From: a virus
Lineage: Duplodnaviria; Heunggongvirae; Uroviricota; Caudoviricetes
DNA: 4,814 nucleotides
Direction: 5' to 3' (one strand)
IMG/VR virus record: IMGVR_UViG_2695420744_000014
Made by a program: the position numbers and the translations under genes. Every line of letters starts with the position of its first letter. The first letter of the stretch is position 1. This document shows positions 3,438 to 4,814 of the stretch, one piece after another. The notes under the pieces were generated by a model. The model worked only from the letters and a program-made list of their open reading frames with translations. It searched no databases and was not told where the DNA came from.

Positions 3438-3500
3438 ATTAGGTTGCGCCCAAATTATTAGGCATAGCCTATTGACAAGTAATTAGGCATTTCCTATAGT
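3438..3500 (+). promoter_or_regulatory. pL-like sigma70 promoter with left operator sites, driving plus-strand genes downstream of racR
   Basis: -35 TTGACA at 3472-3477, 17-nt spacer, -10 TATAGT at 3495-3500. Operator-like palindromes ATTAGGCATAGCCTATT (3457-3473) and ATTAGGCATTTCCTATA (3482-3498) overlap the -35 and the spacer/-10; a degenerate third site lies at 3438-3454. The 23-mer TATTAGGCATAGCCTATTGACAA (3456-3478) is an exact inverted copy of 2813-2835. Confidence 0.55.
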
Positions 3501-3681
3501 TTTCCCATACCAACCCATCCCGTCCCACACAATACAGGGCAATACCTCGAGTTACCAGGCAGTGGTCAGGGGTTAAGTAGCCAGCCCGAGGCGTAAGAAC
3601 ATGACGGCAGGGTTCAACTTTAATAACTATGCAGCAGGTTTTTGTTCCGCTACCCCGGCGTTAAGGGGAAATGAGGTCAGC

Positions 3682-3834
3682 ATGGATACTATCGAGCTTG
3701 GCAACAACGAATCTCTGGTATGCGGCGTGTTTCCCAACCAGGACGGCACGTTTACCGCGATGACATATACCAGAAGCAAAACGTTTAAAACTGAAGCTGG
3801 CGCGCGTCGCTGGTTAACCAGAAACACTGACTGA
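3682..3834 (+). CDS. Small early-left protein (50 aa), YdaF-like / DUF1391-like by recall
   Basis: ATG at 3682 with SD GAGG at 3673-3676 (5-nt spacer); stop TGA at 3832-3834. The ORF track starts at ATG 3601 (77 aa), but that start has no convincing SD. Family assignment is tentative. Confidence 0.5.
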   Translation: MDTIELGNNESLVCGVFPNQDGTFTAMTYTRSKTFKTEAGARRWLTRNTD

Positions 3835-3845
3835 TGAGGTTGACG

Positions 3846-4166
3846 ATGGAATTTAAAGATTTACCAGTACCATTCCAGGAAATGGCATCGAATGTGGTTC
3901 GCTCTCAACTGGCGACTCTTGACCTGAGTACCGTAGAAAAAGAAACCATCGACAATATATCCGGTAACGTACGCCGAGCCTTTATCGGGCTGTACGAAGA
4001 GAAGCAGCTCTCTGATAACCAGGATTTACATGAAAAATACTTCCTGGATCTAATGGACATCATTGATAAGGGGTTTGGCTTGTTAATGAAAAAGAAAGGG
4101 ATTCGAATAGAACCCCTTGAAAATTACTTTGCAACAAAAAGCATTAATTCTTTTGATTCAAAATAA
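3846..4166 (+). CDS. Hypothetical protein (106 aa from ATG 3846), charged and probably helical, function unknown
   Basis: ATG at 3846 with SD GAGG at 3836-3839 (6-nt spacer). An alternative ATG at 3834 overlaps the upstream stop (TGATG). Stop TAA at 4164-4166. GC content falls toward the 3' end. I recognise no family. Confidence 0.5.
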   Translation: MEFKDLPVPFQEMASNVVRSQLATLDLSTVEKETIDNISGNVRRAFIGLYEEKQLSDNQDLHEKYFLDLMDIIDKGFGLLMKKKGIRIEPLENYFATKSINSFDSK

Positions 4167-4419
4167 GAGAATTAATTACAGACTTAACATGCTCTTTCTC
4201 ATGATTGAAGCTCTCATGATTGAAAGTGCCGGGTTGAAGCGAGTCGATATAATCAACAAGACTCTGTCGTACGACTTCATTTTTATCCATAACAGATGCA
4301 AGAAATGAAATTGCTAAAAGAGTTATATCACTACGCGCCGCAGCATGTTGCAATGCTTTATCAAAATTATTAATCTGGCGTATCAGGGAGTTAATGATTT
4401 CATCATTTTCAGTCGACAT
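4144..4419 (-). CDS. Hypothetical protein (91 aa), AT-rich, function unknown; convergent with and overlapping the 106-aa gene by 23 bp
   Basis: ATG at 4419-4417 with a strong SD AGGAGG (complement of 4425-4430) and 5-nt spacer; stop TGA at 4143-4141 (coordinates follow the ORF track's 3' boundary). The track ORF extends to 4752 from a TTG start; that extension is rich in rare Arg codons (CGG, CGA, AGG) and unlike the rest, so I treat it as non-coding. Contains a 15-bp in-frame tandem duplication. Confidence 0.5.
   Translation of the reverse strand: MSTENDEIINSLIRQINNFDKALQHAAARSDITLLAISFLASVMDKNEVVRQSLVDYIDSLQPGTFNHESFNHEKEHVKSVINSLILNQKN
4197..4226. repeat. Two-copy 15-bp tandem direct repeat (TCTCATGATTGAAGC / TCTCATGATTGAAAG) inside the 91-aa gene
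   Basis: Seen directly; 13 of 15 positions identical. In the minus-strand frame it encodes the duplicated peptide FNHES/FNHEK. Confidence 0.7.
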
Positions 4420-4439
4420 TTCACCCTCCTGAGGGTTGG

Positions 4440-4814
4440 TGATTAAGGAGTTCTCCACGGGTGAGGTGGAGTGCGTGCGCCGGACACGGGTGAGCATCCG
4501 GCACTGACAGTTTACTGAAAGGATATTTCCCTGAAAAGTCAGACCATAACGCGAAAGCGCCCGGCGAGGTAGCTGGTTCATAGATAGCCTGTCGTTAAAT
4601 TTTCGTCGACCGTGCGTTTCCGGTTGTGGCAATCCGCGAAATGGCGCGGCGGTAAGTATGGCGGGGTTATTCCTTCCCCGTTGAGGACACCGAGTTGTCA
4701 GGTTGACCATACGCTTAAGTGACAACCCCGCTGCAACGCCCTCTGTTATCAATTTTCTGGTGACGTTTGGCGGTATCAGTTTTACTCCGTGACTGCTCTG
4801 CCGCCCTTTTTAAA
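4440..4814. other. Structured, GC-richer, apparently non-coding block upstream of the 91-aa gene; possible long 5' leader, ncRNA or REP-like element
   Basis: No credible ORF on either strand. Hairpins read directly: CTCCAC/GTGGAG (4453-4471); GCCGGA/TCCGGC (about 4475-4504); CCGCG/CGCGG (4634-4649); CGGGG/CCCCG (4662-4680); GTTGTCA/TGACAAC (4694-4726). No sigma70 promoter for the 91-aa gene was found inside it. Confidence 0.3.

Follow-up and report, generated by a model that had tools for sequence, protein, structure and literature searches.

We analyzed a 4,814-nucleotide (nt) stretch of DNA from a tailed phage of the Caudoviricetes (IMG/VR record IMGVR_UViG_2695420744_000014; hereafter "the window"), with a focus on the block without evident genes at its right end (positions 4420-4814). 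Sequence comparison shows that the window comes from a Rac/PPompW-like lambdoid prophage of Escherichia coli, of which it covers the immunity and early-left region, and the block is very probably (with a probability of roughly 0.8) the plus-strand untranslated part of an early-left transcript of the dicBF operon type, that is, the precursor of the small RNA (sRNA) DicF. DicF is among the oldest known bacterial small RNAs and connects prophages with host cell division, metabolism, and the virulence of enterohemorrhagic E. coli. The locus formed by DicF and its untranslated precursor region is already known. Within it, we identified a 120-nt RNA domain (4621-4740, plus strand) that combines a four-way junction with a pseudoknot. 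Comparison of its homologs indicates that this fold, which folding energy does not support, is real, and the domain is apparently undescribed and absent from Rfam.

Identity and Genomic Context of the Block

The block carries DicF at positions 4755-4806 of the plus strand (Rfam RF00039; 76.7 bits against a gathering threshold of 48; E = 2.7e-16; model positions 1-52 of 52), with a sequence identical to that of K-12 DicF over the match. This was the only Rfam family found in the window, and nothing was matched at the domain. Positions 4100-4814 are 100% identical to E. coli 2017C-4173W12 and several further genomes, and among 5426 complete E. coli genomes, BLAST matches to the block are present in 4328, at up to 8 copies in one genome.

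The closest described counterpart is the dicBF operon carried by the Qin prophage in E. coli K-12 MG1655, in which dicA, ydfA, ydfB, ydfC, 340 nt without genes, dicF, dicB, and ydfD follow one another. Positions 4432-4814 are about 97.7% identical to the ydfC-dicF spacer plus dicF of Qin (about nine differences, few of which fall within 4621-4811). The two loci thus have an identical DicF, a 320-nt upstream sequence with about 97.7% identity to the ydfC-dicF spacer, and dicB and a ydfD-like gene next in order. They differ in that the window has a DUF1391 (ydfA-like) gene, a phrog_6937 open reading frame (ORF), and an inserted minus-strand ORF of 91 amino acids, replacing ydfB and ydfC, and in that the prophage of the window is Rac/PPompW-like and inserted beside ompW.

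In the 100%-identical genome, the block is preceded by replication genes, ydaT, a cro-like gene, racR, the DUF1391 (ydfA-like) gene, a hypothetical gene, and a minus-strand hypothetical gene, and is followed by dicB, a DUF1482 (ydfD-like) gene, an exonuclease gene, an excisionase gene, an integrase gene, and ompW. In this genome dicB begins about 170-175 nt past DicF, and recE, xis, and int are the genes that lie just past the window, after dicB and ydfD. An earlier sequence-only reading of this DNA had held that the window stops inside the block, and indeed the U-run of DicF ends at 4811 and the untranslated region continues for about 170 nt to dicB. The same reading had proposed to look for a reverse transcriptase gene just past the window; there is none, and the genes found there are dicB, the DUF1482 gene, and those for the exonuclease, Xis, and Int.

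A consensus scan identified a pL-like early-left promoter at 3472-3500 of the plus strand (TTGACA-17-TATAGT, 11 of 12 consensus matches), located downstream of the racR/cI-like repressor gene, in a position that corresponds to dicBp of K-12 Qin. This promoter is presumed to be the start of the transcript that carries the block. Regarding the ORF at window 3601-3834, which is listed with 77 amino acids from 3601, the RefSeq start is at 3682 and gives a 50-amino acid DUF1391 (YdfA-like) protein, and the Pfam match of 97.8 bits suits this shorter form.

DicF and Its Processing

The 3' half of DicF constitutes a predicted intrinsic terminator (4769-4811, plus strand; stem 4769-4779/4793-4805 and U-run TTTTT at 4807-4811; z = -3.8), in agreement with the terminator role described for the 3' hairpin of this sRNA (PMC5069750, PMC9438474). 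Between the domain and the terminator stem there is an A/U-rich linker (4741-4768, plus strand) with a small predicted hairpin (4745-4751/4758-4764), in whose loop lies the mature DicF 5' end (4755), which has been attributed to RNase E (PMC10448788, PMC5069750). In K-12, both a 190-nt and a 53-nt DicF are produced, as reported by Faubladier et al. and confirmed by Ragunathan et al. 2023 (PMC10448788). [quoted passage not shown] The 5' end of the 190-nt form requires RNase III, and this form builds up upon inactivation of RNase E and is a stable species whose level rises in stationary phase; for the 53-nt form, RNase E is required (PMC10448788). The main long K-12 transcript measures 1,146 nt and ends at the DicF terminator, and a read-through form of 1,608 nt was seen only without RNase E (PMC10448788). 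Figure S1 of this study shows exactly the sequence analyzed here (PMC10448788). DicF is known to act through Hfq-dependent repression of ftsZ and other mRNAs (PMC5069750), and from its sequence identity, the DicF of the window is expected to function as that of K-12.

A length of 190 nt, measured backward from where the U-run ends (4810-4811), leads to 4621-4622, which is the 5' edge of the match to the covariance model of the domain (R1). The conserved unit of domain, linker, and DicF (4621-4811, plus strand) therefore corresponds by length, and by length only, to the published 190-nt long DicF, and as judged from the reported length alone, the mapped RNase III end would sit exactly at the edge of the domain. 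The long DicF and this unit have the same sequence, and the length suits 4621-4811; the difference is that in the literature found, which did not include the 1990 and 1994 papers of the Bouché group, the 190-nt species is only an intermediate of RNase III and RNase E processing, with no fold, covariation, or conservation across phages described. As a stalk for RNase III, we also considered long-range pairing of the sequence that precedes 4621 with the dicF-dicB spacer; the energy of this duplex was no better than that of shuffled sequences (-39.2 against -41.5 +/- 4.4).

Coding Potential, Strand, and Upstream Spacer

The block is non-coding by several measures. Plus-strand ORFs within 4420-4814 reach only 23-36 amino acids, and the 36-amino acid ORF at 4612-4722 (plus strand), the one ORF of the block that was scanned, has no Pfam match. 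The sole long frame, a minus-strand extension of 111 codons that lies upstream of the ATG at 4419, is not retained in relatives. In addition, relatives of 4432-4620 show 1-nt indels and wholesale swaps of mosaic sub-segments with no conserved reading frame, which excludes a conserved protein on either strand. The earlier claim that the block lacks a plausible ORF is borne out.

The functional strand of the block is the plus strand, as judged from two features of the sequence. DicF is encoded on it, and many pairs of the closing helix of the domain (P0) are G-U pairs, which would be A-C mismatches on the minus strand, indicating that the folded strand is the plus strand.

The 5' part of the block is a variable, non-coding spacer (4432-4620, plus strand), homologous to the K-12 ydfC-dicF intergenic region and present in mosaic variants with 1-nt indels. 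Hairpins can be drawn in it at 4453-4471, 4479-4502, 4504-4542, 4550-4559 (with a GAAA loop), and 4591-4610. No compensatory changes were detected in these upstream hairpins (4453-4610), including the GCCGGA...TCCGGC hairpin at 4479-4502, and the hairpin with the GAAA loop has an A-C mismatch in 20 of 64 variants. Nut-like boxA/boxB elements were considered for the CGCGAAAGCG hairpin and the terminator tail and rejected, as inspection showed that they are unconserved across lineages.

Folding energies were compared, as z-scores, with those of shuffled sequences of the same dinucleotide content. The whole block has z = -1.35 on each strand, which is ordinary for its composition; the spacer (4432-4620) is no better than its shuffles (z = +0.28), the domain (4621-4740) has z = -0.98, and the piece with DicF and the terminator (4741-4814) is the only one that beats them (z = -3.8). 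As the z-scores of the whole block, the spacer, and the domain are unremarkable, thermodynamics cannot carry a claim of structure for them. The earlier description of the block as hairpin-dense, with at least five stable inverted repeats, consequently holds in part: the hairpins can be drawn, and DicF with its terminator (by energy) and 4621-4740 (by covariation) are structured, but the energy of the whole block is ordinary and the hairpins of 4432-4620 are unsupported.

A Conserved 120-nt Domain With a Pseudoknot Precedes DicF

The domain at 4621-4740 of the plus strand scores 143 bits with model R1, and its helices were defined on an alignment of its copies (A2, below). They comprise P0 (4623-4630/4730-4737), which closes the junction, P1 (4634-4638/4645-4649), Pa (4650-4653/4689-4692), P2 (4662-4666/4676-4680), and P3 (4693-4700/4720-4727), together with a pseudoknot between 4656-4661 and the P3 loop (4707-4712), all on the plus strand. 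The single-sequence minimum-energy fold of the domain in the window gives the same junction. The GGU at 4651-4653 may pair either with ACC, forming Pa, or with GCY beside the pseudoknot; both pairings fit equally well and are mutually exclusive.

Support for the fold comes from pairs in which both partners have changed. A2 is an unbiased alignment of 73 distinct copies made with MAFFT. In it, 95.1% of the cells are paired, against 30-55% with slid partners, and 13 pairs show double changes, compared with 5.4 +/- 1.6 in shuffled controls, a number that 0 of 500 shuffles reach. When the same 73 copies were aligned to the model (A3), 96.1% of the cells were paired (slid partners, 30-55%) and 16 pairs showed double changes (shuffles, 5.6 +/- 1.6). 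With 38 copies of greater diversity, likewise aligned to the model (A4) and including divergent copies from scans requiring a change in P3, 94.2% of the cells were paired (slid partners, 30-52%) and 19 of 36 pairs showed double changes (shuffles, 10.5 +/- 1.8). As the aligned sequences are related, the shuffle control is not to be read as a probability. The check for compensatory changes that the sequence-only reading had proposed therefore separates the two parts of the block: 19 of 36 pairs are compensatory in 4621-4740, and none in the upstream hairpins. Its idea of an independent structured RNA is likewise upheld, by DicF through Rfam and by the domain through covariation.

The changes involve several helices. 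P3 reads GGGUUGUCA/UGACAACCC in the window, GGGUAACCA/UGGUUACCC in Izhakiella, GUUGCCA/UGGCAAC in phage P1, and GGAUCACCA/UGGUGAUCC or GAGCUACCA/UGGUAGCUC in contigs of the L155 and L149 types. P2 has at least six different stem sequences among the copies. For the pseudoknot, the window has GUAUGG/CCAUAC and phage P1 has GCAUGG/CCAUGC; for Pa, the window has CGGU/ACCG and P7-like copies have CGGC/GCCG.

Searches with Rfam 15 (4227 models) gave no match to the domain at E <= 1 in the window, P1, cdtI, and pPE4, or at E <= 0.1 in the L155-type loci. ARAGORN found no tRNA or tmRNA in the window, so that the domain was rejected as such a molecule, and the Rfam tRNA model matches only the true tRNAs of P1. 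No account of the domain was found in the literature, including by search with the literal sequence; the papers of Faubladier from 1990 and 1994 and the P1 genome paper were outside this search, and an older drawing may exist.

Distribution and Genetic Contexts of the Domain

As the spread of BLAST matches revealed, 4623-4729 is also found alone, with the remainder of the block absent. The domain is present in e14/cdtI-type prophages, where it lies between a cI-like gene and yfdP, in the P1/P7 family and 510 P1-like plasmids, and in a record named Actinobacillus phage pPE4; pattern scans also identified it in Citrobacter, Serratia symbiotica, Trabulsiella, Erwinia tracheiphila, and Izhakiella. 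Each of the 14 early-left-leader and P1 copies that were examined has an intrinsic terminator, located 10-55 nt after the domain. These terminators are mostly DicF-like (GGCGGUA...), and that of P1 is unrelated.

In P1, the domain (68726-68843 of NC_005856) starts about 30 nt past the -10 element of the C1-controlled promoter Pban, with tRNA genes and ban up to 2.6 kb downstream and no plus-strand promoter annotated in between. The "dicF-like region" annotated in this genome (68791-68892) covers P3 and the following terminator; the P1 copy differs from that of the window in its terminator hairpin, which is unrelated to DicF, in its position after the Pban -10 element rather than inside an operon, and in compensatory changes in P2, P3, and the pseudoknot. 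In cdtI-type prophages the domain lies about 285 nt past a pL-like promoter, and in these, Erwinia, and Izhakiella it is part of the leader between a cI-like gene and yfdP/yfdQ. In L155-type contigs it is found in an ORF-poor stretch of about 2.9 kb between the genes for a phrog_536 regulator and a holin, and no terminator comes immediately after the domain. No protein gene is common to all these contexts. We found one copy of the domain per region, and no second copy in the rightward operon in the regions examined. Considering the P1, cdtI-type, and L155-type contexts, the role of the domain cannot be the delivery of DicF alone.

Several observations were made around individual copies. In L155 (3964-6876; also in L149, L159, and L166), neighboring sequences fold into junctions closed by the same GUUGUGG/CCACAA helix and contain the related motifs GCGGCCGUAAGUAAGCAGGGG and GCGGCGUAAGGUGGUCAAAGG and a repeated junction motif, GTGCKCTTNCCGTTGTGRTG, with no Rfam match; from these predicted folds, the stretch may be an array of related RNA modules. 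In Erwinia, Izhakiella, Trabulsiella, and Serratia (L145, L146, L143, and L134), the loop of the terminator hairpin, within the 130 nt that follow the domain, holds a Shine-Dalgarno-like AGGAG followed by an ATG, from which a short frame crosses the 3' strand of the stem; this frame could encode a leader peptide or serve translational coupling. Weak matches to STnc100 (RF02076), of 39 and 33 bits and under the gathering score of 47, were obtained in L007 (3766-3950) and L006 (3842-3961). The first lies in the spacer past the DicF-like terminator, the equivalent of the dicF-dicB spacer, and the second, in P1, about 1.2 kb past the terminator and beyond the tRNA genes.

Three copies (L017, L065, and L136) have lost the 5' strand of P0 through a deletion that joins two ACGCGAAA repeats (window 4548-4556 and 4637-4645); L136, from Shigella flexneri, also has a decayed DicF, and all three look like degenerating copies. 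In the Actinobacillus phage vB_Apl-pPE4 record (L007, 3600-3780), the DicF-like terminator and the leader are tandemly duplicated and the flanks are nearly identical to E. coli prophage sequence; the host named for this record may need to be re-examined. Phage cdtI carries, in its rightward operon (L008, 1040-1241, minus strand), matches to C4 antisense RNA (68 bits) and isrK (60 bits) and a weak match to c4-a1b1, which would correspond to an RNA immunity module of the P1/P4 type in a phage with the domain in its leftward leader.

The Compositional Boundary Is a Mosaic Joint

The sequence-only reading had also placed an abrupt change of composition near 4420-4440, and this is correct: the G+C content rises from 0.33-0.375 (in segments over 4001-4400) to 0.52-0.54 (4401-4800), with the break at the ATG (4419) of the minus-strand 91-amino acid ORF (4144-4419), for which no Pfam or PHROG family was matched. 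Homology to related prophages starts at 4416 in PPompW phages, at 4434 in K-12 Qin, Tritos, and many more, and at 4456, 4474, or 4534 elsewhere. Since the step in composition and the start of homology fall together, and since the 91-amino acid ORF is missing from K-12 Qin and Tritos, the step is read from these comparisons as a mosaic joint (4416-4434) between an AT-rich inserted minus-strand gene and the conserved module with the dicF-type untranslated region. In other prophages (loci L013, L022, L029, L030, and L071), different minus-strand ORFs begin at the same joint, and some of these ORFs have a common ribosome-binding site and 5' sequence, CCCTCAGGAGGGTGAAATG. This suggests that the joint at 4420-4434 is a slot for the exchange of variable "moron" genes that face the early-left transcript.

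Discussion

Our analysis places the block within the untranslated precursor of DicF. RNA polymerase would start at the repressor-controlled promoter at about 3472-3500, pass the ydfA-like ORFs and then the antisense strand of the inserted 91-amino acid gene, and enter the block, whose last 190 nt (4621-4811) form a conserved module composed of the 120-nt junction locked by a pseudoknot, the A/U-rich linker, and the 53-nt DicF with its 3' terminator hairpin. Polymerase would then halt at the DicF terminator or continue to dicB, ydfD, recE, xis, and int. RNase III would cut at the 5' boundary of the folded domain, yielding the 190-nt long DicF, and a cut by RNase E in the linker would release DicF, which together with Hfq would repress ftsZ and further host mRNAs. 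The processing steps are those of the literature; the present comparisons show what the locus is, that it encodes DicF, that the plus strand is the functional one, that the block is non-coding, and that the fold is conserved and spread among phages.

Two other origins proposed for the block fit these data poorly. A structured leader or riboregulator of the minus-strand 91-amino acid gene (4144-4419) would agree with the ribosome-binding site GGAGGG (4424-4429) of this gene, which adjoins the block, with the different minus-strand ORFs that have the same ribosome-binding site at the same joint in other prophages, and with a weak promoter-like site at 4537-4509 (minus strand, 8 of 12 matches). 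However, thousands of E. coli genomes, as well as K-12 and Tritos, keep the block with 95-99% identity in the absence of this gene, DicF and the G-U pairs put its function on the plus strand, and the minus strand has no good promoter, only two sites with 8 of 12 matches, so we regard this reading as very improbable. Slimmer still are the chances of a cluster of repetitive extragenic palindromic (REP) sequences or bacterial interspersed mosaic elements (BIMEs), or of a protein gene in decay. On the minus strand, the 5' end of the hairpin at 4479-4502 is GCCGGATGC, which resembles the start of the E. coli REP consensus. REP sequences would be expected in hundreds of extragenic copies per genome, but this hairpin has a median copy number of one per genome and a maximum of 7 (the block, 7-8 places at most), always linked to the block, and the REP/BIME reading was rejected on this copy number. 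A gene remnant was rejected on the 1-nt indels, the swapped segments, and the lack of a shared frame among relatives, along with the 36-amino acid ORF at 4612-4722 that has no Pfam match.

For the domain itself, the role that we tentatively put first, at less than even odds, is that of a scaffold that sets the RNase III and RNase E cuts and stabilizes the precursor: its closing helix would offer the site for RNase III, and the A/U-rich linker would remain open to RNase E. We favor this role because it fits the 190-nt intermediate and because in most lineages the domain is strictly linked to a terminator-type sRNA. Several points weigh against it. The coincidence of the RNase III end with the domain edge depends on a length estimated from gels, and the predicted stability of the domain is not beyond chance (z = -0.98). 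P1, Pa, and the pseudoknot hardly vary, partly because the search patterns fixed those sequences. In P1 and the cdtI type the domain lies near the 5' end of the primary transcript, and in the L155 type it has no adjacent terminator. Moreover, a pseudoknotted fold of 120 nt with almost invariant loops is more elaborate than the usual RNase III and RNase E sites.

Control of read-through at the terminator is possible and is the next most likely role after the scaffold. In the form of a cis-acting element like HK022 put or the Bacillus EAR, which would modify RNA polymerase to pass the DicF-type and later terminators (toward dicB...int, or ban in P1), we consider it unlikely. It would account for the finding that, in long operons that are repressor-controlled or late, the domain always lies on the strand that is transcribed and ahead of terminators to be passed, whether after Pban (P1), a pL-like promoter (cdtI type), or cI-like genes (Erwinia, Izhakiella), or between a regulator in the Q position and holin (L155); the lack of a neighboring protein gene common to these contexts points to host partners, and no N-like gene is visible in the window. 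Against it, there is no Rfam match and no match to put, the domain is present as a single copy per region examined, with none in the rightward operon, and the spacing between domain and terminator varies. In K-12, furthermore, the main species is the terminated 1,146-nt transcript and the read-through form appears only with RNase E inactivated (PMC10448788), which indicates that termination there is efficient. The domain resembles HK022 put in being a structured RNA on early transcripts of an N-less lambdoid phage, upstream of terminators and with no apparent dedicated protein partner, and differs in architecture, as put has about 70 nt with two stem-loops and a triplex and the domain has 120 nt with a four-way junction and a pseudoknot, in one copy per phage. 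Model R1, run with filters off on the 24-34 kb region of HK022, selected for its immunity genes and put sites although the put sites were not located in that record, gave 7 bits at best, and homology to putL/putR was accordingly rejected. The EAR (eps-associated RNA) of Bacillales is a pseudoknotted RNA of about 120 nt located between genes inside an operon. It is similar to the domain in size, pseudoknot, and intra-operon place; it belongs to other taxa and has another sequence, Rfam gave no match at the domain (the presence of the EAR model in the library was unchecked), and antitermination by the domain is a hypothesis.

Somewhat less probable again is a stable RNA that acts in trans, for instance as a protein decoy or a tRNA-like mimic, as one of a family of excised cloverleaf-like modules. 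The 190-nt species is stable and accumulates in stationary phase (PMC10448788), the topology is that of a cloverleaf (a closing stem and three arms), and L155-type copies are flanked by modules with the GUUGUGG/CCACAA helix, GCGGC(C/G)GUAAG motifs, and the repeated junction motif; the domain also sits where phages often keep tRNA genes, beside the P1 tRNAs and between the Q position and holin. However, ARAGORN detects no tRNA or tmRNA, the neighboring "modules" are single-sequence folds, unaligned and with energies not above chance, and no partner is known. We give little credit to a riboswitch-like or factor-dependent attenuator that would decide whether the DicF terminator forms. A pseudoknotted fold followed by a terminator, with two exclusive pairings of GGU (4651-4653) that fit equally, would suit it, but there is no Rfam riboswitch match at E <= 1, the linker of 10-55 nt shows no conserved alternative pairing with the terminator, the P1 terminator stem is unrelated, and L155-type copies have no adjacent terminator.

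On a broader scale, it is conceivable, although we would not count on it, that the domain is the first recognized representative of a so far undescribed class of RNA modules, pseudoknotted and cloverleaf-like, in temperate phages of enterobacteria, with a function beyond DicF delivery. Such modules would have a closing helix of the GUUGUGG/CCACAAC type and a near-invariant core (CGCGGCGGUAAGUAUGG...CAGGUUGACCAUACGC), and would move among lambdoid, P1-like, and other phages, either singly before DicF-type terminators or with related modules in untranslated regions that are kilobases long. Their function could be, for example, to make RNA polymerase resistant to terminators or to be excised as a stable RNA.

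The untranslated region before DicF is thus not featureless: its 3' 120 nt form a fold, supported by covariation, that moves as a unit between unrelated phages and that is, by length, the 5' part of the stable 190-nt DicF species. For research on DicF, the domain is a concrete target for mutagenesis. It could explain the position of the RNase III cut and the choice between release of DicF and read-through into the toxic dicB, and it could also explain how lambdoid phages without N and the ban operon of P1 pass their first terminator.

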